A program made the translations under genes and the position numbers. From IMG/VR virus record IMGVR_UViG_2778261175_000003: a stretch of 37,236 nt of DNA; one strand, 5' to 3'. Shown piece by piece: positions 332-36,261 of this stretch (its first letter is position 1; each line of letters begins with the position of its first letter). Below the pieces are notes generated by a model. It saw only the letters and a program-made list of their open reading frames with translations, had not been told where the DNA came from and searched no databases. Source of the stretch: a virus (lineage: Duplodnaviria > Heunggongvirae > Uroviricota > Caudoviricetes).

Positions 332-592
332 TTAATTTTGAGGTAAGGGCAAACTCATCTGATTGTTTCCTTTGTGTGAAGCTGGCAGTTCATGCCACGG
401 GATACCTTCTGAAGAGTGAGCGCCGGAGGCGTGTTTCGATGTGAATTTATGGAAAGCTTCCAGTGTTGAGAAGCATACACCGCATTCTAGGTTGTTACAT
501 TGGTAATACTTTTGCCGCACGGTGTTTGAATCATTTTCCGGACGACTGGTGCGGATTCGGGCAGATGCGCCACAAAGCGGACAACGGAACAT
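332..592 (-). CDS. ogr: Ogr/Delta-family zinc-finger late transcription activator
   Basis: N-terminus MFRCPLCGASARIRTS...YYQCNNLEC matches the P2 Ogr C4 zinc-finger pattern (CPLC...C..C); location next to D as in P2. Confidence 0.85.
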   Translation of the reverse strand: MFRCPLCGASARIRTSRPENDSNTVRQKYYQCNNLECGVCFSTLEAFHKFTSKHASGAHSSEGIPWHELPASHKGNNQMSLPLPQN

Positions 593-802: not shown

Positions 803-1117
803 GTGGTTGCTGATCATGAATATTTGTATTGGAAGATAATTGCAATGAGCGAAAGAGTGTTTGAGAAAGAACTATATTCTGAATGGGTTATACGCAATAG
901 TCTATATTGGATGACTCCGCTTACTCGATGGAAACTCCATGAAGACGTTTCCCACTGGATAATCTCTTTTGAAAACGATAATCCCAAATTCCTTTATGAA
1001 TTCGATAGGCTGCTTAATGATTACTCTTTGCGAGAAAAGCTACAGCATAAAACAGGGGCGTTGAGAGACTCTATTGTCCATAAAGTGCTTCGCAGTGTTG
1101 ATGAGAGGCTTTCATAA
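803..1117 (+). CDS. hxsD: Small protein at the head of the Hxs cassette, HxsD-like by position
   Basis: ORF track (GTG start at 803; alternative ATG at 845). Stop overlaps the start of the next gene (TAATGG). Assignment by operon context only. Confidence 0.45.
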   Translation: MVADHEYLYWKIIAMSERVFEKELYSEWVIRNSLYWMTPLTRWKLHEDVSHWIISFENDNPKFLYEFDRLLNDYSLREKLQHKTGALRDSIVHKVLRSVDERLS

Positions 1118-2505
1118 TGGAATTGATGCCATTTAATTTTGACAGATTGCCTAATGGACAGGTGTTTATAAGCAACCTTGCAGGTTTTCATCATTTCATT
1201 GGTGAGCAAGACCTTATTGATCTTTCTGATGAGCGAATTAGTTCGGAGCAATCAAACGTGCTAGAAAGTAAGCTTTTCATAACCAGTGAAAGCTCATCTG
1301 CTATAACTCCCTATGCTTTAAGTTCTGCTTTTGCAAAACGATTGATGAATGAACTGGCTGTCAGGCCAATTTTCATGATTGTACCCACATTACGTTGTGA
1401 CCATACATGCAAGTATTGCCAGGTTAGTAGAGCTTCTGTTAATGCCTCAGGTTACGACCTAAATCCTGAGCTCATCCCCGATATTATTTCGGCTATTAAA
1501 AAACTATCAACGCCACCTTACAAAATAGAGATACAGGGTGGGGAGCCTCTCTTGCGGTTTGATTTAATTCAGAACATCTATGATCAATGTGCTGAAACGC
1601 TGGGAAGAACCAATTTTGAGATGGTGGTGGCATCAAGTCTGTCTGTCTTGAATGAGGATATGATTGAATGGTCGAGAGACCGGAACATAACGTTCTCTGT
1701 GTCGCTTGATGGTGAGGAAGTTGTTCACAACAGTAATCGAATTCTTGGTCGTGGGCTTGCGTACAGTAGAACAGTGTCAGGGGTAGAGGCTATCAAACAC
1801 TCTTTAGGTGCTGGCCGCGTTGCAACGGTTACTACAGTTACTAAAGAGCTTATCAGACGTCCTGAATCGATTGTTCAGGCTCACTTGTCTCTTGGGCTCA
1901 AGGACATGTTTATCCGACCTGTTAGTCCCTATGGGTTTGCACAAAAAGCTTCTTTCACCTTTTCTATGGACGAATACTTCAGCTTCTATGCCTCGTTGAT
2001 AGATGAAATCCTTAAGATTAATAATGAAGGGATAAGGGTTGTGGAACATTCGGCCTCCATTCATCTGAAAAGGATCTTCAATCCCGGTTTTAGTGGCTAT
2101 GCGGATTTAAAGTCTCCAAGTGGAGTCGTGCTTAACAGTATTCTTTTCAATTATGACGGTCGAGTATATGGTAGCGATGAGAGCCGTATGTTGCAGAAGG
2201 TGAATCCTGAAACGGAGTTCAGTGCGGGTGAAGTTAAGACGCTATCATTTTCTGATAGTCCTTACTATAACGCAGTATTGACTTCATCGTTCAATTTTGC
2301 TCTGCCAGGTTGTGATACATGTGCATATCAACCATTTTGTGGTTCAGATCCATGCCAGAACATAAGTGTACAGGGTGAGCCTGTCGGCGATAGGAGTCGT
2401 TCAACGTTTTGTCAATATCACAAGGGGATGTTCAGGTATCTGATGAACTGCATCTCAGAGGGTGGTTCGAAGGCTGAGATGCTAAAAGGATGGGCATATG
2501 TCTGA
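1117..2505 (+). CDS. hxsB: Radical SAM/SPASM-type maturase, HxsB-like (462 aa)
   Basis: CxxxCxxC motif (CDHTCKYC) about 95 aa from the N-terminus, C-terminal Cys cluster (CDTCAYQPFCGSDPCQ) typical of SPASM/twitch domains; GGEPLL motif; translationally coupled to neighbours. B versus C naming is by size and order, from memory of the TIGRFAMs Hxs families. Confidence 0.75.
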   Translation: MELMPFNFDRLPNGQVFISNLAGFHHFIGEQDLIDLSDERISSEQSNVLESKLFITSESSSAITPYALSSAFAKRLMNELAVRPIFMIVPTLRCDHTCKYCQVSRASVNASGYDLNPELIPDIISAIKKLSTPPYKIEIQGGEPLLRFDLIQNIYDQCAETLGRTNFEMVVASSLSVLNEDMIEWSRDRNITFSVSLDGEEVVHNSNRILGRGLAYSRTVSGVEAIKHSLGAGRVATVTTVTKELIRRPESIVQAHLSLGLKDMFIRPVSPYGFAQKASFTFSMDEYFSFYASLIDEILKINNEGIRVVEHSASIHLKRIFNPGFSGYADLKSPSGVVLNSILFNYDGRVYGSDESRMLQKVNPETEFSAGEVKTLSFSDSPYYNAVLTSSFNFALPGCDTCAYQPFCGSDPCQNISVQGEPVGDRSRSTFCQYHKGMFRYLMNCISEGGSKAEMLKGWAYV

Positions 2506-3610
2506 GGTTATCAGGAACGATATCTTTCATTTTGCTTCTACAGAGAACGTGCCCACGGGGTTCTATCGGTTATGCAAACAAAAACCAGTGAACCCTTTAT
2601 TCTTTTTGCCCAATTTGCTAGTAGTTGCTGAGGGCAATAATGATGCCATTCCACCATGCTTTGATTTCTCTGTTATTAGCACTGAATTATTTGAGTCAAT
2701 TGAAGATGGAGATATTGGGATAATCAACAATGGCAATATGATACGCGTTATTCTGTCACGCAAAGCCAACCATAATACTGTCTTAGTTACGGAACGCTGC
2801 AATAACTTGTGTCTGTTTTGTTCGCAGCCACCAAAGAAAATAAATGATGACTGGCTACTTACCCAATCAGCTCTTGCTATAGCTTCATTTGGCTTGAACG
2901 GAGTTGTTGGGGTCAGCGGTGGTGAACCTTTGCTATATGGGGATGACTTCCTTCACTTCATTGATTTTATCATCGAGAATTCACCAGATACTGCTTTACA
3001 TGTTTTAACAAACGGACGCAAATTTGCTGATACCAACTTTACACAGGAAATGGCAAAGCGAAGCAAAAAGATCAAAATCACCTTTGGTATCCCGCTCTAC
3101 TCATCAAGACCACTTGTGCATGATCATCTGGTAGGGAGTGATGGCGCATTTAATGAAACGGTTAAAGGGTTAATCAATGCAGGAAACTTGGGGATTAATA
3201 TCGAACTTAGAGTTATTCCTACACTGGCTAACTATACCGAATTGGATGATATCGTAGAATTCGCTGGCCGTGTGTTCTCCAACATCAATCAGATTTCCCT
3301 TATGGGGTTGGAGCCTATCGGTTGGGCACGAAAAAACTGGTCCACCATCTTCATTGATCACAGTAGTTATAGTGAGAAAATAATCTCTGCCATAGACGCT
3401 GCATACAGGTCAGGCATACCTCTGACAATTTTTAATTATCCTTTGTGTTATCTTCCTGAAAGGGCTAGGGAGCTTGCTGTTCAGTCGATCTCTGATTGGA
3501 AAAATTACTATCCAAAAGAATGTGATGAATGTACTCAGAAGCCTTCCTGTGCTGGCTATTTCAGTTCCTCAAAAGGCCGTTTTCATCAATCACCGAGACC
3601 AATTTTATGA
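2498..3610 (+). CDS. hxsC: Second radical SAM/SPASM-type maturase, HxsC-like (370 aa)
   Basis: CxxxCxxC (CNNLCLFC), GGEPLL motif, C-terminal Cys cluster (CDECTQKPSC). Start ATGTCTGA overlaps the hxsB stop; its stop overlaps the hxsA start (ATGA). Confidence 0.75.
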   Translation: MSEVIRNDIFHFASTENVPTGFYRLCKQKPVNPLFFLPNLLVVAEGNNDAIPPCFDFSVISTELFESIEDGDIGIINNGNMIRVILSRKANHNTVLVTERCNNLCLFCSQPPKKINDDWLLTQSALAIASFGLNGVVGVSGGEPLLYGDDFLHFIDFIIENSPDTALHVLTNGRKFADTNFTQEMAKRSKKIKITFGIPLYSSRPLVHDHLVGSDGAFNETVKGLINAGNLGINIELRVIPTLANYTELDDIVEFAGRVFSNINQISLMGLEPIGWARKNWSTIFIDHSSYSEKIISAIDAAYRSGIPLTIFNYPLCYLPERARELAVQSISDWKNYYPKECDECTQKPSCAGYFSSSKGRFHQSPRPIL

Positions 3611-4242
3611 AAAAGTTTAATTTTGCTGCTCTACTTCCGGGATTTTTGGCTCTCAACAATTCTGTATGGGCAAGCGATTCATCTACAGGAGCGAGTGATT
3701 TACCTGGTATGACTCTTAATGAGCATGATTTAGTGATAGCTCCACTTAACACGGAAGTCCCATTTTATATCGCAGGGCATCGAAGCCATAGTTCTCATAG
3801 GAGCCATAGCTCTCATAGATCCTCATCAGGTGGTGGATACTATGGTGGAAGTACCCCCTATTATCCAAAAACATACAGCTCACCAAGTTCATCTGGTTCT
3901 TCAAGTTCAGGTGCAAGTTCCTCATCGTCCTCTTCCTCGGTGCGTGCACTTCGTTCTAACGATAATAATAGAACCACTAACACGAGTTCTGTTGGAACTT
4001 CAGAGGTTAACCGTACGAGTAATGGGCTTGCTTCTGATGCAGAGAAACGTAAGCGATTGATTATGCGAGTTCAGTTCGCATTGCTGGACAGGGGATTTTA
4101 TAACGGAAATATTGACGGCATAATGGGGCCATCCACAAGGCTGTCTGTGAAAAATTACCGCATTGCGAATGGATTACCGATTCCTGCAACTGAAACACTC
4201 GACACACAATTGTTAAATTCTTTGAATATATTAGCTCGCTAA
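3607..4242 (+). CDS. hxsA: His-Xaa-Ser repeat protein HxsA-like: signal peptide, (HxS)x5, Ser-rich linker, C-terminal peptidoglycan-binding-like domain
   Basis: Start taken at MKKFNFAALLPGFLALNNSVWA (ATG 3607) rather than the track start 3529. Contains HRSHSSHRSHSSHRS, a poly-Ser tract and a C-terminal segment (RVQFALLDRGFYNGNIDGIMGPSTRLSVKNYRIANGLP) resembling PG_binding_1 domains. Confidence 0.75.
   Translation: MKKFNFAALLPGFLALNNSVWASDSSTGASDLPGMTLNEHDLVIAPLNTEVPFYIAGHRSHSSHRSHSSHRSSSGGGYYGGSTPYYPKTYSSPSSSGSSSSGASSSSSSSSVRALRSNDNNRTTNTSSVGTSEVNRTSNGLASDAEKRKRLIMRVQFALLDRGFYNGNIDGIMGPSTRLSVKNYRIANGLPIPATETLDTQLLNSLNILAR
3778..3822 (+). repeat. Coding tandem repeat encoding five His-Xaa-Ser units
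   Basis: DNA reads cat-cga-agc-cat-agt-tct-cat-agg-agc-cat-agc-tct-cat-aga-tcc; position derived from codon arithmetic in the hxsA frame. Confidence 0.8.
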
Positions 4243-4406
4243 ATCTCAGTGAGGTATAAATAAAAAGCAATAAATTATATTAGTCGCGCGTCCATTATTG
4301 GTGGGTAAGTTCAAGGACCGTCTGCTCTGTGTCAGGGGCAGATGGTCAGATAAGACTGTGCCGTTTAGCCCGCTAGTACGTGTCTGGACTAATACATTTA
4401 AGAGTC

Positions 4407-5516
4407 TCATTCTGCTATCCATTCCGGGATTTTTGCCTCAAGCTCAAGCTGTGTGGTAAAGCCGCTGTTATCAATGGTGTGCTCGGCTTTTGCAATAATC
4501 CAGTCCTGATTATCAATCTCGCTTTTAAATCCTGTTACCGTGCCATGCATTTCGGGGTAGAGTTCTGCACGCCCACGTGCCAGCGTGATGGAAAATGATG
4601 CGGCTCCGCGTTGTAGCTGCTGCCACTTTGCCGCCGCTGCGCGTCTTGCTGCCTGCTCGTTTTTAAACGTTTTGCGCATGACGTATACATTGCCGTCTGC
4701 GCCCTCCATGTAATCCCCCTCGCGGCTGCTGCTTTTCTCCTTTTTTGTTTTTTGGGCAGAACCACGTTTCGTCACGCTGACTTTTTTCTTTTTGCCATAG
4801 TCCAGGTCCAGCCAGTAAGCGCGTACCCCCGTGTACGCCTGCCGGTCTGCAATGCGGAAGTGATGGCTGTCACCGCTGCTGCGGGTGATGGCGAATGAGG
4901 GCAGCGGCTTTCCGCTGGCGCTCACCCCCTGTCCGGGCACGATGAAAAGCAGTGCGCCGTTCTTGACGGTGGCTATGGCTCCCAGCATGTCTGCCATACG
5001 CGTGAGAAACGAGATGTCACTTTCCTCCGTCTGGTCGGCGTGGTCGATTTCCACCTCTGCCAGCGAGGCGCTGATTTGCGCCTTCAGCCCGTAGCGGTAC
5101 GCGATGGCAGAAACAACCTGCCCCACCGTCACGTCATGCCAGGACACTTCACGCTTCACGTTGAACTCCTGCCGGAAGTCTGCGCTGCTGGCCGTGATGG
5201 TGAGCCTGTCCGGTGGTCCCTCATGTGTCACCTCGTCAACGATGAAGGTTCCTTTGTCCATCAGTGCCTCACCTTTCCAGCCCAGCGCCAGACCCAGCGT
5301 CTGTCCGCGCTTCGGGAGCTGCACGCTGCCGTCGCAGTCGTCAATCGTGAGGGTTAACTGGTCTGCCTCAAATCCCCGGTTGTCGGTCATCGCCAGCGAG
5401 ATGACCCGTCGGGTCAGCGCCGCGTTTTCCGTGCCCTTAACCGTGATGGAAAAATCAGGGATCTTCACGCACTCTGACAGACCGTTCAGGTATCCGCTTA
5501 CGTCCGCAGGGTTCAT
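4407..5516 (-). CDS. D: Tail protein D (late control gene D family)
   Basis: Protein resembles P2 gpD. Start placed at MNPADVSG (ATG at 5514-5516, GGAGA RBS upstream) rather than the track GTG at 5699. Confidence 0.85.
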   Translation of the reverse strand: MNPADVSGYLNGLSECVKIPDFSITVKGTENAALTRRVISLAMTDNRGFEADQLTLTIDDCDGSVQLPKRGQTLGLALGWKGEALMDKGTFIVDEVTHEGPPDRLTITASSADFRQEFNVKREVSWHDVTVGQVVSAIAYRYGLKAQISASLAEVEIDHADQTEESDISFLTRMADMLGAIATVKNGALLFIVPGQGVSASGKPLPSFAITRSSGDSHHFRIADRQAYTGVRAYWLDLDYGKKKKVSVTKRGSAQKTKKEKSSSREGDYMEGADGNVYVMRKTFKNEQAARRAAAAKWQQLQRGAASFSITLARGRAELYPEMHGTVTGFKSEIDNQDWIIAKAEHTIDNSGFTTQLELEAKIPEWIAE

Positions 5517-5588
5517 CGCAATTTCTCCGTCTGTGTCTTCGTACGGCGAAATACTCCCACGCGCACGGAGGCGCTGTAATCCTGCGTA

Positions 5589-5614
5589 TGTTGTCGGAGA
5601 GCGGCGAGAACAGG
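5589..5614 (+). promoter_or_regulatory. Candidate late-promoter activator element TGTTGTCGGAGAGCGGCGAGAACAGG upstream of FI
   Basis: Near-identical 26-nt element recurs upstream of P (24183-24208); each lies about 60-80 bp upstream of a late-gene start and carries TGT...ACA ends reminiscent of the Ogr-dependent P2 late promoter motif. Spacing differs from the canonical TGT-N12-ACA. Confidence 0.4.
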
Positions 5615-5678
5615 CAGCGCGTGAATGCGGGGCTGTTTTTCGGGAGGATGTCGCCACACAAAACACCAGGAGGTGCTC

Positions 5679-6860
5679 ATGAGTGAAACACGCTTTCACG
5701 GTGCACGCGTCAAAGAAAACACCGACCTCGTGACCGCGATTAATGACATTGATTCCAGTGTCATCGGTATCGTGGCCACGGCGGACGATGCAGACAGCGA
5801 CGCGTTCCCGTTAAACAAGCCCGTATTGATCACCCGCGTGGCGAATGTGCTGGGTAAGGCAGGCACAACAGGCACGCTGTACAAAACGCTCAAGGCGATT
5901 TCCGACCAGACCAGCCCGAAGGTTATCGTGGTGCGTGTGGCAGAAGCCGGAGAGGAAGGTGAGACACAGGATCAGCTTGTCATTGGTGGCTCGCAGGCTG
6001 ACGGCAGCTACACGGGCATGTATGCCCTGCTGGTTGCTGAACAGGACGAGAGCATTGGTTACCGCCCGCGCATTCTGGCGGCTCCCGGCCTGGATACCGA
6101 AGCAGTCACATCCGCCCTGTGCGTCATTGCGGACAAGCTCCGCGCCTTTGTGTACGCCGGATGTAACGGGTGCGACACGATGGCGGAGGCAATCACTTAC
6201 CGTGCGAAGTTCTCCGCGCGTGAGCTGATGCTGCTGTGGCCTGACTTCATTGCCTACAACCCGGTGAGCGGAAATAACGAAACATTTCCGGCAGCGGCGT
6301 ATGCGTGCGGGTTGCGTGCGCGGATTGACAGTGAACAGGGCTGGCACAAGTCACTGTCCAACGTGGCGCTGAAAAATGTTCTCGGTATGTCGCAGCAGGT
6401 GTTCTGGTCGTTGCAGGCCGAAGACAGTGATGCGAACAACCTGAACAACAAGGAAATCACCACGATTATTCGCCGTAACGGCTTCCGCTTCTGGGGGAAC
6501 CGTACTGCCGAAACCAGCGACTACATCTTTGAGGTGTACACGCGCACAGCGCAGATTCTGGCAGATACCATCGCTGAGGCGCAGTTCGAAACCATTGACG
6601 AACCGCTGACCCCGGCGAACGTGAAGGACGTGATTAGCGCCATCCGCGCAAAACTCAACGCCCTGGTGACGGCCGGGAAACTCATCGGTGCGGAGTGCTG
6701 GTATGACGTGCTGGACAACGGCACGACGGATTTGCGTCAGGGGCGCGTGCGCATCCGTTATAAGTACACGCCAGTGCCGCCGATGGAAGATCTGACGCTG
6801 TATCAGACCTTCACGGATGAGTATTTCGACTCCGCTTTTGCAACGCTGGGAGGTGCGTAA
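5679..6860 (+). CDS. FI: Contractile tail sheath protein
   Basis: Strong similarity to P2 gpFI (e.g. FPLNKPVLIT, ELMLLWPDF, RRNGFRFWGNRT, YKYTPVPPMEDLTL). Start at ATG 5679 with AGGAGG RBS. Confidence 0.9.
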   Translation: MSETRFHGARVKENTDLVTAINDIDSSVIGIVATADDADSDAFPLNKPVLITRVANVLGKAGTTGTLYKTLKAISDQTSPKVIVVRVAEAGEEGETQDQLVIGGSQADGSYTGMYALLVAEQDESIGYRPRILAAPGLDTEAVTSALCVIADKLRAFVYAGCNGCDTMAEAITYRAKFSARELMLLWPDFIAYNPVSGNNETFPAAAYACGLRARIDSEQGWHKSLSNVALKNVLGMSQQVFWSLQAEDSDANNLNNKEITTIIRRNGFRFWGNRTAETSDYIFEVYTRTAQILADTIAEAQFETIDEPLTPANVKDVISAIRAKLNALVTAGKLIGAECWYDVLDNGTTDLRQGRVRIRYKYTPVPPMEDLTLYQTFTDEYFDSAFATLGGA

Positions 6861-7376
6861 ATGGCTGTACCACGTTACGTTCGCCAGTTCACGCTGTTTG
6901 TGAACGGCAAAAACAAAATCGGCACGGTGACAGGCATCACTCTGCCCAAGCTGACCCGAAAAACCGAAGCCTATCGCGGTGGCGGGATGCTGGGTGCGGT
7001 GCATATTGACCTCGGACTGGATGACGGCGCACTGGATGCCTCGTTCACCACCGGTGGGGTTGAAAAAGAGCTGCTCCAGGAATACGCCACTGACATTAAC
7101 GAAGTGGCGCTGCGCTTTGTGGGTGAGCTGTTCACCGATGGTGAGGAAAGTCAGCTCCTTGAGGTGGAGATGCGCGGACGCATCACGGAAATCGACCGTG
7201 GCGAAACCAAACAGGGCGACACCACGCAGTACACCTTCGCCGTCAAAAACACCTACTACAAGGAGTCGGTGGATGACAGCGATGTGACAGAAATCGACCT
7301 GCTGAACTTCATCTACAAAAAAGACGGCCAGAACGTCTTTGGTGACCGCGTGAGTTCGGCGCTCGGTCTGAACTGA
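6861..7376 (+). CDS. FII: Tail tube protein
   Basis: Position directly after FI, size (171 aa) and similarity to P2 gpFII. Confidence 0.85.
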   Translation: MAVPRYVRQFTLFVNGKNKIGTVTGITLPKLTRKTEAYRGGGMLGAVHIDLGLDDGALDASFTTGGVEKELLQEYATDINEVALRFVGELFTDGEESQLLEVEMRGRITEIDRGETKQGDTTQYTFAVKNTYYKESVDDSDVTEIDLLNFIYKKDGQNVFGDRVSSALGLN

Positions 7377-7422
7377 CAGCATTAACAGGGCGGCACATTG
7401 TGCCGCCACAGGAGAAAGAAAA

Positions 7423-7839
7423 ATGGCAGCAAAGAAAGATGACATCATGAACAGCGAAATCGTCGCAGGTGACACCACCACTGAAAACATCGATGTGGCA
7501 GAGGAAAACACTGCGGATAACGCAGAAGCCGCAGAGGAAAAAACGGGGGTGAAGTTATCCTGCCCGGTGGTGCGTGGCGAACGCGTTATTGACTACGTGG
7601 AGATTGGCGAGGAAATCCGTCAGGCAGGCTCGTTGCGCGGGCTGTCTCTGATTGAGGTGCTGAACCTCAAAACGGATCCGATGATGACGCTGCTTTCGCG
7701 CGTGACCGCACCACGCCTGAAACTGGCAGAAATTCAGTCACTGTCCACCGGTGATTTCGTGGCGCTGGCGACTATGGCTGCGAATTTTTTTGCTCCCACG
7801 GAGTCTGCGAAACCGTCCGTGGCGGTGATGGAAGCGTAA
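7423..7839 (+). CDS. E: Tail assembly chaperone E
   Basis: Position between FII and the tape measure gene; acidic N-terminus; ends shortly after a T7 slippery run. Confidence 0.8.
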   Translation: MAAKKDDIMNSEIVAGDTTTENIDVAEENTADNAEAAEEKTGVKLSCPVVRGERVIDYVEIGEEIRQAGSLRGLSLIEVLNLKTDPMMTLLSRVTAPRLKLAEIQSLSTGDFVALATMAANFFAPTESAKPSVAVMEA

Positions 7840-8003
7840 TCACGCTGGCGAAGTTCGACAACGTTGAAGAACTGGTCGCTGATATAGCAGTCGTGTTTAA
7901 CTGGTCGCCCGGCGAGATATTCTCAATGCCTCTCGTCGAGGTGATGAGCTGGCGTGAGCGGGCGGCGCAACGTAGCGGAGTCCGCAACAGTGAAATCCCT
8001 TGA
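7423..8003 (+). CDS. E+E' fusion produced by programmed -1 frameshift at T_TTT_TTT (7785-7791)
   Basis: Hand translation of the -1 frame from 7791 gives an open 70-codon extension (..ITLAKFDNVEELVADIAVVFNWSPGEIFSMPLVEVMSWRERAAQRSG..) ending at TGA 8001-8003 and overlapping the T start, as in P2 E/E'. Confidence 0.7.
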
Positions 8004-11000
8004 TATTCGTGTCAGCTTTGGCGCAATTGACCGGCTGACACGCCCGACCGAAAACGCCCGCCGTCAGGTGGGCGCTCTCACTGAATCCCTTCAGAAGACG
8101 CAGAACAACATACAGGCGCTCGACAGACAGTCGAAGGTGTTCGATCGTGCCGCCGGAAATCTCAGTAAATACCGCGAACAGATTGCCCGCGCGGAGCAGA
8201 GGCTCGCCGGGCTGCGAAAGGCAGAGCAGGACGGTAACACTCTCTCCGAAAAGCAGCGGGAGATGATGACGGCGCTGTCTGCACGTCTTGAGCGCCTGAA
8301 CGAGCTGCGCACGCGCGAGCGCGAAAAACTCCAGGCGGCGGCAGGCGAAATGCGCAAACACGGCATTCTGCTTTCCGGCAGCAGCCGCACCATCGAAAGT
8401 GCCGTTCGCCGTACACAGCAGTACAACGAGCAGCTCGAGCGCGAACGGCAGGCACTGGCTCGCGTGACGCAGGCACAGAGCCGCTATGAGGCCGCGAAGG
8501 CACAGGCGGAAAAACTGCGCAACACAGGGGCTGTGGCGATGGCGGCGGGTACAGGCGGCCTGTATGCGGCGCAGCGCATGATGGTTCCGGCGATGGAGTC
8601 CGAACAGCACGGCGCGGTCATTGCTGCCGGTTCAGGGGAAGCCCCACAGGATGGCGCACGTTACACCCACATCATCCGTAACATACAGGCTGACAGTCTC
8701 GCTGATTTTGCCGGTGCTGCGGAGGCTGTGAGTGCGGTACGCAGTACGCTCGGCGCGCTGGGCGACACCGGCGACCGGGAACTGGAGCGCATCAGCCGTC
8801 GTGCGCTGGATATGCGGACCGTCTTTGGTGTTGATGTGCCGCAGAGCATTCAGGCCGCAGCCATCATGATGAAGAACGGGCTGGCCGCCAGCAGTGACGA
8901 GGCTACTAACCTGATGACGGCAGGGATGCAGCGCATGTCCGCTGAAATGCGCGATGAACTGCCGGAAATTCTGCATGAGTATTCCACCCACTTCCGCAAC
9001 ATGGGCTTCACCGGCAGCGAGACAATGAGTCTGCTGGTTGAGATGGCAAAGCAGGGCAAGTTTGCGCTGGACAAAACCGGCGATGCCGTGAAGGAGTTCA
9101 GTATCCGTGGTTCGGATATGTCGAAATCCAGTGTTTCAGCGTATGAGACACTCGGCCTGAATGCCGAACGGGTGTCTGCTGCCATTGCTCAGGGGGGCAG
9201 TACCGCACGCCAGGCGATGCAGGTGACCGCCCGTGCACTGCTGGCCATCCGTGACCCGGCAGAGCGGGCGAACACGGCCATTGCGTTATTCGGCACCCCC
9301 GTTGAAGACCTTTCCGTTGACCAGATCCCGCAGTTCCTGAGGGCGCTGGCTGATGTTCGTGACAATCTGGGCGATGTCACCGGTGTGGCAGACCGCATGG
9401 GGCAGACGCTGCGCGGTAATCTCTCCGGCGATATTCAGGCGCTGAGTGGTGCGTTCTCAGGGCTACGCACGGACATCTTCGGTACTGTGACCGAGGATTT
9501 GCGCGGGCTGGTTCAGACGGTGAGCGCGTGGGTGACCCGGATGCGCGAATGGGTCGGAGAGCATCAGGCGCTGGTCAGAGTCCTGGTGCTGACCGGCGGG
9601 AGTGTTCTGGCGCTGTCTTCCACGTTCGGTGCGCTGTCACTGACGCTCGGGCTGATTGCGGGGCCGCTGGCAAAACTGCAACTGGGGCTGGGGCTGCTGA
9701 CGGGGGGCGGCGGCATTGGTGGTGCTGTCCGGCTTGTGTCTGCGATGGCACTGCGCCTGACGGGGCTGCCTGCGCTGTGGGGGCTGGTCACGGGGGCGGT
9801 GTCGGTACTGGGTGGCGCACTGGGGGCGCTGTTCAGTCCGGTCGGGCTGATTGTTGCCGCCCTGGTGGGCGGCGCGGTTCTGGTGTGGAAATACTGGGAT
9901 CAGATCAGCGCGTTTTTTTCCGGCTTTTTTGCCGGAGTGTGGGAGGCGCTGCAACCGCTGCGGGAAGCCTTTGCATCGCTGGCTCCGGTGTTCGGGTTGA
10001 TTGGTGACGGCATCAAAGCTGTGTGGGAGTGGTTCACCCGCCTGCTTGAACCTGCGAACGCCTCAAAAGAGACGCTCGACAAATGCACCAGTGCCGGGGA
10101 GTCGTTCGGCAAAACGCTGGGGTGGGTCATTCAGAACATTGTGCTGGGGCCGCTGATGCTGCTCCTTGATGGTCTCGGTACCGTGCTGAAGTGGCTGGGT
10201 GTCATCCCGGACGGCATCAAAAAGGCACAGAAGGAGACGCAAAAACTCCAGGTGAGCGCCGCAAAACAGGCCACACAAAAAGCGCCGGTTGCGTGGGAGT
10301 GGGATCCTGCACAGAAAAAAATGGTGCAGAAAACATGGTCGTGGTCATCAGATGCAGAGGAAAACAACGGTGACAATAAACCCGCAATACCTGCCCCTGC
10401 GGTTCCCGGAGAGGTGAAGGGAACGTCAGACAATCCGGTCAGCAAACCCGGTAGTAAATCCCCGCTGGATGAGGCATGGTTCCGGCAGGGGATACAGAAA
10501 ACCGCCAGCAACACCGGCGGGCTGCTTGAGGAAACCAAAAAACGTACTGGTCCCGGCGATATTGTTTTCAAAAACCTGCCCGGACCCGAAATCATTCACG
10601 GCGAGTGGAAAGCACCGCAGGTTATCCGGACAGTGCAGGCGGTATCGGCGGGCGGAGGACTGGCGGATGCGCTGACAACGCTCTGGCAGAAACTCACCGG
10701 AAGACAGACTGCTTCACCCGTTCCGGTCGTGAATATTCCTGCGCCAGTGGAGAGAGTGGCACGTCAGGTATCCACGCTGCCGCAGCACAACGAGGCAAAT
10801 ACAGAACTGGTTGCCGGTATTCAGCGTGTGCATGAGGCGGTGAACAGTCCGGGTGGAGAGGGCACTTTGCCTTCCCCCGTGGTTAACGTTCTGATGCCAG
10901 CAGTGAATGTTCCTGCGCCAGTGGTGAGCGTGGCCCGTCAGGTGTCCACGCTGTCACAGCCGCAGCACAACGAGGCAAATACAGAACTGGTTGCCGGTAT

Positions 11001-11454
11001 TCAGCGCGTGCATGAGGCGGTGAACAGTCCGGGGGGAGAGACGGTATCGCCTCCACCTGTGGTGAACGCTCTGATGCCAGCAGTGATTGTTCCTGCGCCA
11101 GTGGTGAGCGTGGCGCGTCAGGTATCCACGCTGCCGCAGCACAACGAGGCAAATACAGAGCTGGCTGCCGATATTCAGCGCGTGCGTGAGGCTGTAAACG
11201 GCCCGGGCGGAGATGTGGCTTTATCTGTTCCTGTTGCGGAGGTTATCCGTCCACCGCTGCGACCGGAGTCCGTCAAAAAAGAAACCGCGCCACAAACGCA
11301 GGCTGCGGCATTTTCCGGTGAAATACACGTACATCTGCACAACGTCAACACGCAGAATCCGCGTGAACTGGCAAAACTGGTTGGCGAGGCTGTCCGCGAA
11401 GAGATGCGCAGACAGGCGCGTACAGGCATGAACAGCTTCTGTGACAGGGACTAA
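7954..11454 (+). CDS. T: Tail tape measure protein
   Basis: Very long ORF after E/E' with coiled-coil N-terminus, Gly/Ala-rich hydrophobic middle and internal repeats. Track start is GTG 7954; an alternative GTG near 7990 is possible. Confidence 0.85.
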   Translation: MSGRRNVAESATVKSLDIRVSFGAIDRLTRPTENARRQVGALTESLQKTQNNIQALDRQSKVFDRAAGNLSKYREQIARAEQRLAGLRKAEQDGNTLSEKQREMMTALSARLERLNELRTREREKLQAAAGEMRKHGILLSGSSRTIESAVRRTQQYNEQLERERQALARVTQAQSRYEAAKAQAEKLRNTGAVAMAAGTGGLYAAQRMMVPAMESEQHGAVIAAGSGEAPQDGARYTHIIRNIQADSLADFAGAAEAVSAVRSTLGALGDTGDRELERISRRALDMRTVFGVDVPQSIQAAAIMMKNGLAASSDEATNLMTAGMQRMSAEMRDELPEILHEYSTHFRNMGFTGSETMSLLVEMAKQGKFALDKTGDAVKEFSIRGSDMSKSSVSAYETLGLNAERVSAAIAQGGSTARQAMQVTARALLAIRDPAERANTAIALFGTPVEDLSVDQIPQFLRALADVRDNLGDVTGVADRMGQTLRGNLSGDIQALSGAFSGLRTDIFGTVTEDLRGLVQTVSAWVTRMREWVGEHQALVRVLVLTGGSVLALSSTFGALSLTLGLIAGPLAKLQLGLGLLTGGGGIGGAVRLVSAMALRLTGLPALWGLVTGAVSVLGGALGALFSPVGLIVAALVGGAVLVWKYWDQISAFFSGFFAGVWEALQPLREAFASLAPVFGLIGDGIKAVWEWFTRLLEPANASKETLDKCTSAGESFGKTLGWVIQNIVLGPLMLLLDGLGTVLKWLGVIPDGIKKAQKETQKLQVSAAKQATQKAPVAWEWDPAQKKMVQKTWSWSSDAEENNGDNKPAIPAPAVPGEVKGTSDNPVSKPGSKSPLDEAWFRQGIQKTASNTGGLLEETKKRTGPGDIVFKNLPGPEIIHGEWKAPQVIRTVQAVSAGGGLADALTTLWQKLTGRQTASPVPVVNIPAPVERVARQVSTLPQHNEANTELVAGIQRVHEAVNSPGGEGTLPSPVVNVLMPAVNVPAPVVSVARQVSTLSQPQHNEANTELVAGIQRVHEAVNSPGGETVSPPPVVNALMPAVIVPAPVVSVARQVSTLPQHNEANTELAADIQRVREAVNGPGGDVALSVPVAEVIRPPLRPESVKKETAPQTQAAAFSGEIHVHLHNVNTQNPRELAKLVGEAVREEMRRQARTGMNSFCDRD
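10729..11220 (+). repeat. Three tandem coding repeats (about 174-180 bp, about 58-60 aa each) inside the tape measure gene
   Basis: Copies begin near 10729, 10903 and 11083; protein unit PVVN.PAPV..VARQVSTLPQHNEANTELVAGIQRVHEAVNSPGGE. Confidence 0.8.
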
Positions 11455-11467
11455 AGGAGACACAATT

Positions 11468-11926
11468 ATGATGATGATTTTTGGCATGTTTGTGTTTGAA
11501 CTGAAAACGCTGCCGCATCAACAGATTCAACAAAACAAAACGTGGCGGCATGTGAAAAATGAGCGCATTAACCGCTCTGCGGCCTGGCAGTATATCGGTG
11601 CAGGTGATGAGCAGATCACGCTGTCTGGTCAGCTGTACCCGGAAATTACCGGTGGTGAGGTGTCGCTGACACTACTGAACACCCAGGCCTACACCGGATG
11701 TCCCTGGCCGCTGATTGATGGCACGGGGCAGATTTACGGAATGTACGTGATTACGGGATTACAGACCACCCGCTCCGAGCTGGATCGTTACGGAAAGGCA
11801 AAAAAGATTGAGTTCTCCATCAGCTTTCAGCGGTGTGATGAGGATATGAGGGAGAAACTCCAGTCTGCTTCTGCGGGTGAATTACTGAACACGCTTAAAG
11901 ACAAAATGGCTGAGGCTGCATTCTGA
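11468..11926 (+). CDS. U: Tail protein U
   Basis: Similarity to P2 gpU; start at ATG 11468 preceded by AGGAG RBS (track start 11441 overlaps T). Confidence 0.8.
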   Translation: MMMIFGMFVFELKTLPHQQIQQNKTWRHVKNERINRSAAWQYIGAGDEQITLSGQLYPEITGGEVSLTLLNTQAYTGCPWPLIDGTGQIYGMYVITGLQTTRSELDRYGKAKKIEFSISFQRCDEDMREKLQSASAGELLNTLKDKMAEAAF

Positions 11927-11934
11927 ATAAAAAA

Positions 11935-11959
11935 GAGGGAGTGTAAAAAGCACTCCCTT
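11935..11959 (-). terminator. Hairpin (GAGGGAGTG-loop-CACTCCCTT) with A-run on plus strand, i.e. U-run on minus strand
   Basis: Read directly; functions as an intrinsic terminator for leftward transcription and possibly marks the end of the U operon. Confidence 0.4.
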
Positions 11960-12055
11960 ATGGCCTTCATGGAAAAGAAGCAAATGTTGTCAATACATTC
12001 TGACTATATATAAATCGCCTGATGATGGCAATGGTGATATTCGGGAAATAAAAAA

Positions 12056-12072
12056 GCCCTCGCAAAGAGGGC
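12056..12072 (-). terminator. Hairpin GCCCTC-GCAAA-GAGGGC preceded on plus strand by an A-run (minus-strand intrinsic terminator)
   Basis: Read directly from the sequence. Confidence 0.45.
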
Positions 12073-12245
12073 AACATGCATTGTGTGAAGATTTAATTTT
12101 TCTGGTTGCAGGGGGGATTATATTGAACTGTATTCATTTAATGCAATATTTTTAATTGTCATCATCATTGATGAAAATATTTCTTGTGTTTTTGTTGCCC
12201 TGATTACAATTTCACTCATTACTGTGTCTTTGCGGCAAAAAAAAA

Positions 12246-12262
12246 GCCCGCACGGGGCGGGC
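12246..12262 (-). terminator. Hairpin GCCCGC-ACGGG-GCGGGC preceded on plus strand by nine A (strong minus-strand intrinsic terminator)
   Basis: Read directly from the sequence. Confidence 0.55.
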
Positions 12263-12963
12263 AAGGAATGTTTGCATGTGTATAACACTGCGGGATTATA
12301 AATAAATTACGCGTTCTGTAAAATCCCCTTTGATGGAGATTCAGGCCATACCAGCGCATTATAACAATCTTCGTCCTTCACGGAAGTGAAAGTCACCTGC
12401 TGAAGTTCTTTAATGTATTCAATTCACGCAGCCAACCTTCCTTTGTCTTGATCGCTGATGGTGCCGGGCAATAACTCAGATTGCCAGATTCTGATCCTCT
12501 CTTTTGCCTCCGGCAGCAGGGGATTTCGTTGTCATTCTGCTTTAGCCTGCCACTTTTCAGGTGGCAGCACATGACGAACAATATTTTCATCATCAAATAT
12601 CCAGTTACCTGAGTCATCAGCACGTTGGTTAGCGTTAATATCAGAAGTATTAACAACACTAAAACCGACATGATTAAGTGTTGATGCCTCTCTGGTAATG
12701 GTGACAATAATATTATTTCGTTGTAAATCATTTTGATTTTATCTGGTCGAAAGGTCCCTGCATCGTTATGCCGGTTTTTATTTCCTTCAGAGGAAATATG
12801 ATTACTTTGTGCTTCTTTTTTAACACATACAGTCTGGAGTTAATGTTGCCTGTTTTATGTTCTTGAGTGCGTCATATTAATCTCTTACATATTATATCTG
12901 GTACAATTTATAGTTTTCTGAAGCTTGCCTGAAAGAATTGAGTTTCCTGCAGGCTTTCAAGGG

Positions 12964-13062
12964 GGTGATGATGATATGCGGGAGAAACTTCAGCCTGCAT
13001 CTGTGTGGGGAATCACTGAATACGCTTAAAGACAAATCGTCGTCGCTGAACGCATTCCCTTA
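12964..13062 (+). pseudogene. Degraded duplicate of the 3' end of tail gene U
   Basis: About 75 nt align at roughly 85 percent identity (by eye) with the true U 3' end at 11840-11915 (GATGA.GATATG.GGGAGAAACT.CAG.CTGC.TCTG...CTGAA.ACGCTTAAAGACAAA), with a 1-nt deletion breaking the frame. Confidence 0.6.
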
Positions 13063-13108
13063 ACCTGACGCCACCACCTCATACAGATAACGAGGTGGTA
13101 GCGTGATT

Positions 13109-13402
13109 TCACCAGTAACTAACCGACAGCCAGAACAACAGGCATGTTGCCACCGGTACAGCAAAATCCATCAGGCTTCCGGCATCCCACACGCGCGGAT
13201 CAAAACCACCCCACCATGGCATGTTAATTCGTTTCCCTTTCCCGAATTTTTCAATCCAGCGATATTCTGCCTGGGTGTGTTCACGTGCAATGAAGAACGT
13301 ACAGCCAGCTACCGCACCATAAGTCCAGTTTCCGGTGAAAAGCCCGGCCAGAAGCTGAGCAGCCACAGCACAAAGTGCATGAAGCAAGGGGCTTATATCC
13401 AT
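13109..13402 (-). CDS. Hypothetical small membrane protein (97 aa, two hydrophobic segments) downstream of the tail-fibre module
   Basis: ORF track; hydrophobic N- and C-terminal stretches; no family recognised. The antisense 13103-13756 ORF is judged a shadow. Confidence 0.4.
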   Translation of the reverse strand: MDISPLLHALCAVAAQLLAGLFTGNWTYGAVAGCTFFIAREHTQAEYRWIEKFGKGKRINMPWWGGFDPRVWDAGSLMDFAVPVATCLLFWLSVSYW

Positions 13403-13414
13403 TGTTTTCTCCCT

Positions 13415-13693
13415 TCAGCTCCATTCCCGAAGCGGTGTTTCCAGCTCCACCACATAATCAGAGAACACAGAAATATCAAACGCATCATCAAGAATGCGGA
13501 TGTTGACAAAATAACCGTCATTCCGGATACAGACAGCTTCCCCCTCTTCAGTTACCCCTGTTTCTGTGTAGGTGAAACCAATTTCATTGACCAGAAGTTT
13601 GTTCTGGAGGTCTTCGTTTTCCTCCCAGTCAAGAGACGACAGGAATGCTTTAAACTGCTGTTTATCATGAAATTTCAGGGTCAGATCTTTCAT
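13415..13693 (-). CDS. Hypothetical acidic protein (92 aa) translationally coupled to H; possible tail-fibre accessory/assembly factor
   Basis: ATGA overlap with the H stop; occupies the position of P2 gene G but no sequence similarity recognised. Confidence 0.4.
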   Translation of the reverse strand: MKDLTLKFHDKQQFKAFLSSLDWEENEDLQNKLLVNEIGFTYTETGVTEEGEAVCIRNDGYFVNIRILDDAFDISVFSDYVVELETPLREWS

Positions 13694-15456
13694 ACCGCCT
13701 CCTTGATTTGTCTGTCGTTTAATTCTTTATGCCATAGGCGGAAATTACGAATATGACCAAACAAATGACGCGTTCCTGCTGCTGTCTGCCCACCAAAGCG
13801 GCATAAATTTGCTGTAACACCAAATGTTTTCCCTTCAGCGGTTACCGCATAATTACCATTGCATATTGCATTTATCGCCAGGTCGGCTCCTGCCCTCAGC
13901 CCCATAATGAATTTATCTCCATCGGCGAGGATTTTTGCGTTGATCATTCCCACTCCAGCAACTATTGTTCCCGCCGAGGAAAAATTAAGCGACATATAAT
14001 CGTTATCAATGCTGTATCCTCCGGTGTCAAATACCCTTGGCGCAATATTGGGGGGAGTATTCCAGTTTTTGTTCACTTCGCACAATACGGTAAAAGGTCG
14101 TGCTGACAGGTTATTTTTCGCAGGGATTGTTACCACATCACTGGCTCTTGTCGTTGCGCTGGCTCCCGAAACAATAAATGATGATACACAAGCACCATCC
14201 TCAACTTGTGGAGTAGCAAGATAAATATAATCACCGGATGCAATTGTTCCACCCCATTTAGGTGAACACTGGATCTGAGAGCCTATTTTTAACTCACCCT
14301 CAATTGCCTCAATTGTTGCCTCGGCAAAAATCCAGCCAGTAGTCTCATCTTTTCTGGCTCTGGCTGAAATTCTGTCTGAGGCATCTCCGGTCGTATTAAT
14401 TTCAAACGTCTGTGTATCAATGTACGCATCACCAAGAAAAGTTGTTGCACTGCCGTCATATTTATCAAACCGGATGCGGAGCCTTAGCTGTAATTCTGTT
14501 TTAAATCGGCATGAGGTTGTCACGTACTTGTTATCGCCAGAGACATCAACCGCCTCTGTTGCAGCAACTGATGCCATATTTACAGCGGAGGTCTGCCCAA
14601 TCAGAGAATCGTTGCAGACAAACTTCCCATAAGTAAAACCAAAACTATCCGTCCCGGTTTCGGGTACATCCATACTTACTGACTTGCCCCAGTTGGCCGG
14701 GGTTTCCGAATTGAGCATGTAGTTTGTTCTTTGCCCTTCAATCAGCAGACCTTCGCGCTCAAATCGTGGCTCATTAATTTCCGCCGTTTTCAGTTCACCC
14801 GATTTATTGATATAGGTTGCCGTTGATGCGCGCGTGAAACTAACCTGTTTATCACTGGCAACCTGAACCACATCATCACCAATGGTGATTTTTTTATAGC
14901 CCGGAGCGAACCCCGTAAGCATATCCAGTGAATCGTTAAACGGTATCCATACATCAGGCAGCGGCGGTACAGAGTCCTTTTCCTGTGCAACATATTCTTC
15001 AACATAGGCGCGGGTGGCGAGCACGACAGAGGGATCAACTTTCAGCTCGACGGATGAAGCACTGGAAACCACAACAATCATGCGAATTGTCTGCGTGCGC
15101 CCGCTTCCCTCGGCGAGTACGGGCTTGTAGGTTTCGGGGCAGTTCGCCACGGCAATCATCACGCCGTCGCTGTCAAAAAGCCCAATCTCGCGGATCCAGA
15201 ACCCCCCTTTGTCTTCCGGGATAATCATCTCGGCGACAAGCTGGCTGGCATCGGACGCGCTGACGCTCAGTTGATTCAACGGGGCGCTGTATACCGTGTT
15301 CACCAGCTTTTCCATGGACGCCGCCGGTTCCGGCAGGCTGCCGCCGCCATCTCCCAGTTTCATGGTGGTGATGGATATTTTTGAGCCGCTGGCCACCGCC
15401 TTTGCCAGACGGGCAGCACCTTTGTCAGTCAGAACAGAAAAATATTTTACAGTCAT
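13690..15456 (-). CDS. H: Tail fibre protein with P2 H-like N-terminus and a divergent, LamG/ConA-like C-terminal receptor-binding region
   Basis: N-terminal about 150 aa closely match P2 gpH (MT.K...V.T..GAA.LA.A...G.K..ITTM..GDGGG.LP.P...). C-terminus ends GHIRNFRLWHKELNDRQIKEAV, a pattern recalled from LamG-type jellyroll domains. Confidence 0.8.
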   Translation of the reverse strand: MTVKYFSVLTDKGAARLAKAVASGSKISITTMKLGDGGGSLPEPAASMEKLVNTVYSAPLNQLSVSASDASQLVAEMIIPEDKGGFWIREIGLFDSDGVMIAVANCPETYKPVLAEGSGRTQTIRMIVVVSSASSVELKVDPSVVLATRAYVEEYVAQEKDSVPPLPDVWIPFNDSLDMLTGFAPGYKKITIGDDVVQVASDKQVSFTRASTATYINKSGELKTAEINEPRFEREGLLIEGQRTNYMLNSETPANWGKSVSMDVPETGTDSFGFTYGKFVCNDSLIGQTSAVNMASVAATEAVDVSGDNKYVTTSCRFKTELQLRLRIRFDKYDGSATTFLGDAYIDTQTFEINTTGDASDRISARARKDETTGWIFAEATIEAIEGELKIGSQIQCSPKWGGTIASGDYIYLATPQVEDGACVSSFIVSGASATTRASDVVTIPAKNNLSARPFTVLCEVNKNWNTPPNIAPRVFDTGGYSIDNDYMSLNFSSAGTIVAGVGMINAKILADGDKFIMGLRAGADLAINAICNGNYAVTAEGKTFGVTANLCRFGGQTAAGTRHLFGHIRNFRLWHKELNDRQIKEAV

Positions 15457-24117: not shown

Positions 24118-24182
24118 ACGGCCTCCTCGAATATCGTTGTGCTCATGATGACGCGCCCTGCGGCCCGCGCTCAACGCGGCGT

Positions 24183-24208
24183 TGTTGTCGGAGAACCGCC
24201 AGAACAGG
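24183..24208 (+). promoter_or_regulatory. Second copy of the candidate late-promoter element (TGTTGTCGGAGAACCGCCAGAACAGG) upstream of P
   Basis: 23 of 26 positions identical to the element at 5589-5614. Confidence 0.4.
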
Positions 24209-24268
24209 AACAGGAAGCGCAGGCAGGACGCGCGCGGGTAGCCTGTATGACAGGAGGTGACAGACGGC

Positions 24269-26011: not shown

Positions 26012-27066
26012 TGAAAAAACAAAAACGAAAACAAACGTATTCCCGCCGGGATGACGGCGGGGATCTGGCAGATGCACTGCGTCATCAGCCATCGTTAAGC
26101 GCTTTCTCGTTTGACGGGCCTTATGATGCGCACGCGCTCGACCTGCTGGATAACGCATACTGCCTGAGTAACGGCAGGTACTACGAAACACCCGTTGACT
26201 GGTACGGGCTGGCGCGGGCATCCCGGCAGACCTCGTGGCATCAGTCGGCGCTGTACTTCAAACGAAATGCCATTCTGGGCTGCTTCATTCCGCACCGGCT
26301 GCTGTCCCGGCAGGCGTTCTCCGCCTTTGCGCTGGACTGGTTTGTCTTCGGGAATGCGTTTCTTGAACTGCGCACCAACAGGCTGGGCGGAAAACTGGAA
26401 CTGCGGCACGCACTGGCGAAGTACACCCGCCGTGGTGTGGAGCCGGATGTGTACTGGTTTGTGCAGACGGGCGAGCAGGATCACGAGTTCCGTCAGGGGC
26501 GCGTCTGTCATGTGCTGAACCCTGACATCAACCAGGAGATGTACGGAATGCCGGAATATCTCGGCGGCCTGTTGTCTGCCAGTCTGTCGCATTCGGCAGA
26601 TCGTTTTCGCAAACTCTACTATGACAACGGTTCACACGCAGGCTGCATTATTTACGTGGGAGCAGCACAGGTTGACCGCGAAAGCATGCAGGCGCTCGAA
26701 AGAGCGTTGCAGGGCGCAAGAGGCGGTGGGGCATTCAAAAACCTGCTGCTCCAGGCACCGAACGGCGGGAAGGACGGTGTGCAAATCCTGCCGTTCCAGC
26801 AGATCACCGCCCGGGATGAGTTTATGAACGTCAAGGCTGCCTCCCGCGATGATGTGCTGGCTGCTCACCGCGTACCACCACAACTGATGGGCGCAATGCC
26901 CAGCGGACAGGGGTCATTTGGTGATGTGGAGAAGGCGGCAAGAGTGTTTGCGATCAACGAACTGATGCCGGTGATGGAGGCGATGAAGCACGTTAATGAC
27001 TGGCTGGGCGAGGAGGTGATCCGCTTTAACCCTTACGCACTGCTGGATACCCCGCCCACATCCTGA
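26011..27066 (+). CDS. Q: Portal (capsid vertex) protein Q
   Basis: Similarity to P2 gpQ; coupled to P (ATGA overlap). Confidence 0.85.
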   Translation: MKKQKRKQTYSRRDDGGDLADALRHQPSLSAFSFDGPYDAHALDLLDNAYCLSNGRYYETPVDWYGLARASRQTSWHQSALYFKRNAILGCFIPHRLLSRQAFSAFALDWFVFGNAFLELRTNRLGGKLELRHALAKYTRRGVEPDVYWFVQTGEQDHEFRQGRVCHVLNPDINQEMYGMPEYLGGLLSASLSHSADRFRKLYYDNGSHAGCIIYVGAAQVDRESMQALERALQGARGGGAFKNLLLQAPNGGKDGVQILPFQQITARDEFMNVKAASRDDVLAAHRVPPQLMGAMPSGQGSFGDVEKAARVFAINELMPVMEAMKHVNDWLGEEVIRFNPYALLDTPPTS

Positions 27067-36212: not shown

Positions 36213-36261
36213 TCATGGAACGCTGGGGGCATGGTGGTCTTGTAACGCTGGGGTTTCACGA

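Follow-up and report, generated by a model that had tools for sequence, protein, structure and literature searches.

The stretch of viral DNA analyzed here (the window, 37,236 nucleotides) carries the late tail genes FI-FII-E/E'-T-U in an orientation opposite to that of phage P2, and this orientation is the standard and fixed layout of a very common enterobacterial prophage lineage (P88 and its relatives), hence ordinary. Most probably the window represents a P88-like prophage with an old, fixed and lineage-wide inversion, and its D/FI spacer a two-way late promoter in the style of pP/pO of P2. The block carrying the F promoter together with FI-FII-E/E'-T-U would have been inverted in place relative to P2, and D, no longer on the F operon transcript, would have a divergent transcript of its own that starts in this same spacer of 162 bp.

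PHROGs, Pfam and NCBIfam served to check which genes are present and on which strand they lie; as the question was one of gene orientation, no chance statistics were involved. The sheath-to-U block (5679-11926) lies on the plus strand, and D and ogr lie on the minus strand together with O...H:

4407-5516, minus strand: D (baseplate hub, "late control D"), 369 aa, ATG at 5516; phrog_52 (2e-154) and Pfam Phage_GPD
5517-5678, no strand: divergent D/FI spacer of 162 bp, putative two-way late promoter judged from its sequence
5679-6860, plus strand: FI tail sheath, 393 aa; phrog_23 (2e-127)
6861-7376, plus strand: FII tail tube, 171 aa; phrog_55 (2e-51)
7423-7839, plus strand: E; phrog_103
7423-8003, plus strand: predicted E+E' frameshift product; slippery T7 run at 7785-7791, -1 frame open to 8003 and overlapping the T start
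7954-11454, plus strand: T tape measure, 1166 aa; phrog_28 (2e-113)
11441-11926, plus strand: U tail protein, 161 aa; phrog_76 (1e-65)
11927-13108, no strand: convergent U/tail-fibre junction, an insert of 39% GC with a copy of the U 3' end on either side
24117 (O start) down to 13109, minus strand: tail fibre, baseplate, lysis and head genes
24269-27066, plus strand: P and Q

PHROG or Pfam matches were found for FI, FII, E, T, U, D, I, J, W, V, S, R, L and the lysis genes, and O, N, M, P and Q were named via megablast to annotated P88-like phages. This means that the late morphogenetic set of P2 is complete in the window (Q P O N M L, lysis, R S V W J I H, FI FII E T U D). D is 78% identical to its P88 counterpart and 47% to that of P2, and FI shows 85% and 47%, respectively. 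The label of phrog_55 is "head closure", which the record of P2 FII bears as well. The open reading frames suggest a programmed -1 frameshift device E/E' ahead of the tape measure, and Escherichia coli SCU-172 has a GpE family protein annotated in the corresponding place. Tandem Repeats Finder detected within T a 180-bp tandem repeat of 2.8 copies (10729-11213).

An earlier sequence-only reading of this DNA gave the strand layout of P2 correctly: in the P2 record V...G and the genes FI, FII, E, T, U, D and ogr all point the same way, and this layout sensu stricto (Peduovirus, Felsduovirus) is not that of the window. Its observation that FI through U lie on the plus strand, opposite to D and ogr, is correct to the base, its coordinates for the divergent D/FI spacer are exact, and the convergent junction of U with the fibre genes spans the gap 11927-13108. 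We also share its view that D, being divergent from FI, needs a promoter of its own. Its judgement that the arrangement is non-canonical or noteworthy is not supported. The window shows the P88-like trait, i.e. FI-U inverted and D divergent from FI over a spacer of about 150-165 bp, and this is the invariant layout of a large and catalogued P2-like subgroup, both in annotated phages and in all sampled relatives. The reading itself had named such an outcome, the orientation being the norm for a known subgroup, as its refutation. The same layout is annotated in four genera of Peduoviridae, namely Xuanwuvirus (P88, phiSM), Novemvirus (phiT5282H), Senquatrovirus (SEN4/5) and Reginaelenavirus (3LV2017). 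FI and U are opposite to D in all 80 of 80 IMG/VR loci (D 62-88% identical), and the 30 species-representative Enterobacterales genomes with an FI identity of 71% or more all (30 of 30) have D and J opposite to FI. More distant relatives among the species-representative genomes that still carry D have the P2 layout, and so does Fels-2.

The lineage is abundant: of 5426 complete E. coli genomes 1411, about a quarter, contain DNA related to positions 4300-8000 of the window. The closest sequences to the window are unclassified E. coli prophages. Megablast coverage by P88 amounts to 26% of 4300-13200 and 39% of 13100-37236, at 78-85% identity, the ICTV genus criterion being about 70% nucleotide identity over the whole genome. 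A search of the literature on P88, Xuanwuvirus, SEN4/5 and P2-like orientation yielded no comment on the inversion. On the strength of deposited annotated genomes and published genome maps the layout is nevertheless already known, albeit without explicit description. P2 is thus not the template for every P2-like prophage, and pipelines for annotation and prophage comparison should expect an inverted FI-U block in the P88-like lineage.

Among the individual relatives Escherichia phage P88 and Citrobacter phage phiSM (both Xuanwuvirus) resemble the window in having D on the minus strand, FI-FII-E-E'-T-U on the plus strand and fibre and baseplate genes on the minus strand. They differ in the region that separates U from the fibre genes, which holds a DNA invertase together with an invertible fibre segment in both phages and the low-GC insert in the window; the T protein of P88 comprises 935 aa versus 1166 aa in the window. 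The E. coli SCU-172 prophage located beside ihfA (NZ_CP054353) is 97% identical at the nucleotide level over 4414-8000 and has the same layout in its PGAP annotation. In Enterobacter phiT5282H, Salmonella SEN4/5, Klebsiella 3LV2017 and Serratia KSP20 FI-U is likewise inverted and divergent from D (D 63-73% identical), whereas their hosts, fibre modules and cargo are different. The F operon of P2 (FI FII E E' T U D) and ogr match the window in gene content, in the E/E' device and in how far the activator site lies from the FI start codon. In P2, however, D closes the F operon and is co-directional with V...G, whereas in the window FI-U is inverted and D separate, and protein identity is only 24-48%.

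The D/FI spacer has a length of 147-164 bp in 24 diverse relatives, and conserved blocks are visible in their alignment. The features of interest in it and in the second divergent late spacer, O/P, are:

5589-5612, plus strand: candidate Ogr binding site TGTTGT-N12-AGAACA, central in the D/FI spacer; motif common to the two spacers
5644-5649, plus strand: predicted pF -10 hexamer GAGGAT, start predicted near 5656-5657
5551-5559, minus strand: predicted extended -10 of the D promoter, TGg GAGTAT, start predicted near 5544
24183-24206, plus strand: second candidate activator site, central in the O/P spacer (24118-24268); same motif
24239-24244, plus strand: -10 candidate for P, TAGCCT
24150 to 24145, minus strand: -10 candidate for O, CATCAT

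Within the window the 24-nt element TTGTCGGAGAnCnGCnAGAACAGG is found only in the D/FI and O/P spacers, in the latter at 24185-24208, with 0 occurrences expected. Both sites depart from the P2 formula TGT-N12-ACA and read TGT-N15-ACA instead; even in the P2 record the annotated sites deviate from an exact N12. An exact search for TGT-N12-ACA returned four matches, fewer than expected by chance and none in the late spacers, and the formula was replaced by the empirical motif common to both divergent spacers. Searches for further late promoters (e.g., upstream of V) with a relaxed motif and with plain TGTTGT gave nothing above chance, and an Rfam scan of the whole window had no matches. P88 has TGTTGT-N12-AGAACg in its D/FI spacer and TGTTGT-N12-AGAACA in its O/P spacer, the latter in the same place as in the window. 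Across the lineage the site is conserved in sequence and position: in 99 of 101 distinct relatives GTTGT precedes the FI ATG by 85-104 nt, and the pF site of P2 is located 93 nt upstream.

The hexamers are conserved in the same manner. On the FI side nAnnAT occurs at +55/56 from the candidate site in 92 of 99 distinct relatives, and on the D side TGn-nAnnAT occurs on the opposite strand at -32/-33 in 70 of 99, about a quarter of the relatives having no D-side hexamer at exactly this distance. In P2, where start sites are annotated, the record places one activator site, common to pO and pP, between the mapped starts of these promoters, with the -10 of pO at +55 and that of pP (TAGCCT) at -32. 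The predicted pF -10 of the window has the offset of P2 pO and is within 1 nt of that of P2 pF. The geometry of a P2-type late promoter, i.e. a dyad about 55 nt upstream of the start, a -10 and no good -35, thus appears to be present in the D/FI spacer, and the single central dyad of P2 pP/pO with -10s on opposite strands seems to be repeated between D and FI. The O/P spacers of the window and of P88 share this geometry. For Smp131 one site was described as serving both PP' and PO' (PMC3931495). A generic sigma70 scan called no promoter in 5517-5678; such scans are expected to miss activator-dependent promoters that have no -35.

One central dyad site (5589-5612) would therefore serve an Ogr-type activator, with the -10 at +55 on the FI side and the extended -10 at -33 on the D side. 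From this architecture, which equals the two-way pP/pO of P2, we infer that the site is bound by Ogr and drives both promoters, so that one bound activator would switch on FI...U and D together. In most relatives ogr follows directly after D and would be co-transcribed, whereas in the window an HXS cassette separates them. We lean, with some reserve, towards the idea that the inversion was tolerated and became fixed in this Enterobacterales-wide lineage because the opposite face of the dyad Ogr site of pF was also usable. The outcome would have been a second two-way late promoter of the pP/pO type, now driving D and, in most members, a D-ogr operon with positive feedback of the activator. No published description of such a reuse of the pF Ogr site to drive D was found. 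The putative two-way D/FI promoter would be a small addition to the model of P2 late regulation: one activator site and two operons, twice per genome.

Several other explanations have to be considered. That the inversion arose recently in this strain alone, or reflects a faulty assembly of this single sequence, has nothing in its favour beyond the difference from P2. More than 100 independent sequences from phages, prophages and metagenomes, with protein identities of 60-99%, have the same junctions, so the layout is no assembly artefact, and in several complete E. coli chromosomes one BLAST piece runs across the D/FI junction without a break; practically no weight is left for this explanation. 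The presence of a Cin/Gin-type invertase at the junction of fibre genes and tail operon in P88, phiSM and Fels-2 brings to mind that FI-U itself might be a programmed segment flipped by a site-specific invertase, with both orientations coexisting as in the tail-fibre switch adjoining U in P88. We regard this as extremely improbable. The window has no invertase, all 110 relatives show a single orientation, and flipping to the P2 orientation would deprive D of the conserved promoter geometry. An inverted-repeat search found none flanking FI-U that could act as recombination sites, and programmed inversion was rejected on that ground.

The remaining two concern the transcription of D only. Located downstream of the fibre genes on the same strand, D could be read through from the minus-strand tail-fibre operon, antisense over U...FI. 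This would require 7.6 kb of antisense transcription past three minus-strand terminator-like hairpins in 11936-12262, and D has a dedicated conserved -10 upstream, which makes read-through very unlikely. Extended -10 promoters work without a -35 or an activator, and of the 74 hexamers located at -32/-33 on the D side 70 have a TGn extension. D might accordingly be driven by an activator-independent (basal or early) promoter, with the central site serving pF only; where ogr follows D, as it does about 50 nt downstream in most relatives, such a promoter would mainly prime ogr. We consider this rather unlikely, as the D -10 is as far from the dyad as the -10 of the Ogr-dependent pP of P2, the spacing between -10 and site is kept across the lineage while the flanking sequence is not, and late expression is to be expected of a structural baseplate gene.

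The activator gene of the window was found some distance from D:

332-592, minus strand: ogr-type late activator gene, 86 aa; Pfam Ogr_Delta with 52.3 bits (cut-off 26.3)

The product is 38% identical to P2 Ogr and has a Cys4 zinc finger, C4-X2-C7-X24-C32-X4-C37, the Cys spacing of P2 Ogr being X2/X22/X4 versus X2/X24/X4 in the window (PMC3931495). An HXS anti-phage cassette, its Hxs identified via NCBIfam, sits between ogr and D. PADLOC 2023 did not recognize this cargo and gave only weak viperin-like radical-SAM matches. In P88 ogr adjoins D, and in the SCU-172 prophage it follows directly after D with no HXS cassette between them; the ogr of SCU-172 has no nucleotide match to that of the window. 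Immediately 5' of the window ogr a sigma70-like TTGGAA-N17-TAGAAT was read by eye, and the gene appears to have a separate promoter of sigma70 type.

In the U/tail-fibre junction the U 3' end is present as direct repeats at 11802-11905 and 12932-13036. The three hairpins, each with a T-run and detected by a terminator/promoter scan, are located on the minus strand at 12262 to 12246, 12072 to 12056 and 11958 to 11936.

The window is a complete P2-like prophage. The assignments of FI to U, D and ogr are based on family scans and the raw sequence. Its right end carries the integrase gene and its left end ogr together with a hok/gef remnant.

Gene layout of the window (coordinates, strand, gene)
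332-592, minus, ogr
803-1117, plus, HxsD
1117-2505, plus, HxsB
2498-3610, plus, HxsC
3529-4242, plus, HxsA
4407-5516, minus, D (ATG at 5516)
5679-6860, plus, FI (sheath)
6861-7376, plus, FII (tube)
7423-7839, plus, E (T7 slippery run at 7785-7791, -1 frame open to 8003)
7954-11454, plus, T (tape measure)
11441-11926, plus, U
24117 (start of O) down to 13109, minus, tail fibre, baseplate, tail completion, lysis and head genes
13690-15456, tail fibre gene H
plus strand, P and Q
36112-37236, plus, integrase

The opposite orientation of D and ogr (minus) and FI to U (plus), already noted in the sequence-only reading, is confirmed by family scans and sequence, and the positions given there for the divergent D/FI spacer (5517-5678) and for the convergent junction (11927-13108) hold exactly. 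Its description of P2 also agrees with the P2 record, where FI, FII, E/E', T, U, D and ogr are co-directional with O...G and the F operon ends with D as last gene. Compared with P2, one block comprising the F promoter and FI through U is inverted in place, while D and ogr still run in the same direction as the remaining late genes.

This layout is, however, ordinary for its lineage and not “non-canonical” as had been proposed; comparison with relatives shows it to be the norm for a well-described subgroup of P2-like phages, since it recurs across phages, IMG/VR relatives, species genomes and E. coli. In megablast searches with the region P88, phiSM and related phages align in one piece across D and FI, and Escherichia phage P88 and Citrobacter phage phiSM are annotated with the same strands, as are Enterobacter phage phiT5282H (Novemvirus), Salmonella phage SEN5 (Senquatrovirus) and Klebsiella phage 3LV2017 (Reginaelenavirus). 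FI is opposite to D in all 80 best D relatives in IMG/VR (D identity 62-88%), and so is U wherever the contig includes it. Among one-genome-per-species contigs, D and J are opposite to FI in 30 of 30 loci with FI at least 71% identical, from hosts including Salmonella, Citrobacter, Enterobacter, Kosakonia, Edwardsiella, Erwinia, Pantoea, Symbiopectobacterium, Klebsiella, Serratia and others; more distant relatives still carrying D show the P2 layout, as does Fels-2, unlike the window. Of 5426 complete E. coli genomes, 1411 contain DNA related to 4300-8000; strain SCU-172 matches best, and its ihfA-adjacent prophage (NZ_CP054353; 97% identity over 4414-8000) has the same annotated arrangement. 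We found no paper that explicitly discusses the FI-U inversion, but it is simply readable from deposited genomes and the arrangement is already known. Thus, the earlier observation stands and its interpretation is partly right, whereas the supposed unusualness is not supported.

One contig labelled Vagococcus sp. WN89Y (NZ_JBQPOM010000071.1, 226 kb) holds a P88-like enterobacterial prophage with a layout nearly identical to one in Salmonella enterica; this assembly is probably contaminated or mislabelled.

Both an orientation switch and an artefact were rejected: only a single orientation is present in about 110 relatives, and the window contains neither inverted repeats flanking the FI-U block nor an invertase gene. 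Therefore, the inversion is fixed and ancestral.

The window has exactly two copies of the 24-nt element TTGTCGGAGAnCnGCnAGAACAGG (0 expected), at 5591-5614 in the D/FI spacer and at 24185-24208 in the O/P spacer. With two more bases it forms the imperfect dyad TGTTGT-N12-AGAACA, a candidate late-activator (Ogr) site that is also found in the O/P spacer of P88. The P2 record describes one activator-binding site common to pP and pO, located between their mapped starts, with TGTTGT at its left edge. The P2 formula is quoted as TGT-N12-ACA (PMC3931495); it is not matched exactly at the window's sites, where the spacing is TGT-N15-ACA, and the window's Ogr has X24 between its Cys pairs versus X22 in the textbook model. 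Because no further copy was found upstream of V in the window and R, S and V overlap one another, the late genes on the minus strand may form a single long operon or depend on sites that have diverged.

Positions of -10 elements relative to the T of TGTTGT (plus strand; minus strand)
P2 pO/pP: pO GAAACT at +55; pP TAGCCT at -32
Window D/FI: GAGGAT at +55 (5644-5649); TGg-GAGTAT at -33 (5559-5551)
Window O/P: TAGCCT at +56; CATCAT at -33

In 99 distinct D/FI spacers of relatives, anchored on GTTGT, an nAnnAT hexamer is found at +55/56 in 92 and TGn-nAnnAT at -32/-33 on the opposite strand in 70, with hexamer counts near background at the remaining offsets. Spacer length (147-164 bp) and site-to-FI-ATG distance (90-100 nt; 93 in P2) are conserved. 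From this geometry and conservation we infer that the D/FI spacer is best read as a second late promoter that works in both directions in the manner of pP/pO, from which transcription of FI...U would start near 5656 and that of D near 5544. This putative promoter is the only, and mildly, new element. Its main rival, rather improbable in our view, relies on the same conserved extended -10, from which D (in relatives D-ogr) would be transcribed without activator. Read-through into D from the fibre operon is unlikely because three terminator-like hairpins lie on the minus strand within 11936-12262.

Between ogr and D a complete HXS anti-phage system is inserted as cargo (803-4242, plus, canonical order, 42% GC), all four proteins scoring above the NCBIfam equivalog cut-offs; PADLOC 2023 did not recognise it in the window. 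According to a 2026 report, HXS blocks the entry of phage DNA, and the majority of its copies in E. coli lie outside prophages (PMC13128918). In the closest E. coli relative, by contrast, ogr abuts D without cargo. Separated from D by this cassette, ogr plausibly has its own sigma70 promoter, the candidate seen by eye being TTGGAA-N17-TAGAAT about 25 nt upstream of the ATG (593-660, minus). Positions 1-299 match the hok/gef toxin locus flanking ogr in the SCU-172 prophage at 98% identity, and the end of that hok/gef CDS coincides exactly with the start of the window. Neither ogr of the window nor the region upstream of it has a nucleotide match to SCU-172 ogr, which indicates a mosaic left arm.

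The 3' end of U is present twice at the U/fibre junction (11802-11905 and 12932-13036, 76-90% identity). The two copies bracket a 1.13-kb insert (39% GC), which resembles the trace of a moron insertion; the same place is occupied by an invertase in P88 and by Z/fun in P2. Inside the insert (12240-12330, minus) a near-consensus sigma70 promoter (TTTACA-16-TATAAT, 12322->12295) lies no more than about 30 nt ahead of a strong terminator hairpin (12262->12246), and together they might encode a very short RNA. A scan with Rfam gave no hits. A 112-aa ORF in the insert (12393-12731, minus) has no family match and its sequence looks implausible. The tape measure gene contains a 180-bp (60-aa) tandem repeat at 10729-11213 (2.8 copies, 86% matches). 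Since T comprises 1166 aa versus 935 in P88 and 815 in P2, a longer tail than in both is predicted. No recognisable G-type fibre assembly protein is encoded downstream of H; its place (13109-13693, minus) is filled by two short ORFs (92 and 97 aa; phrog_1361 and phrog_1443, both of unknown function). E. coli SCU-172 has this pair too, annotated there as hypothetical.
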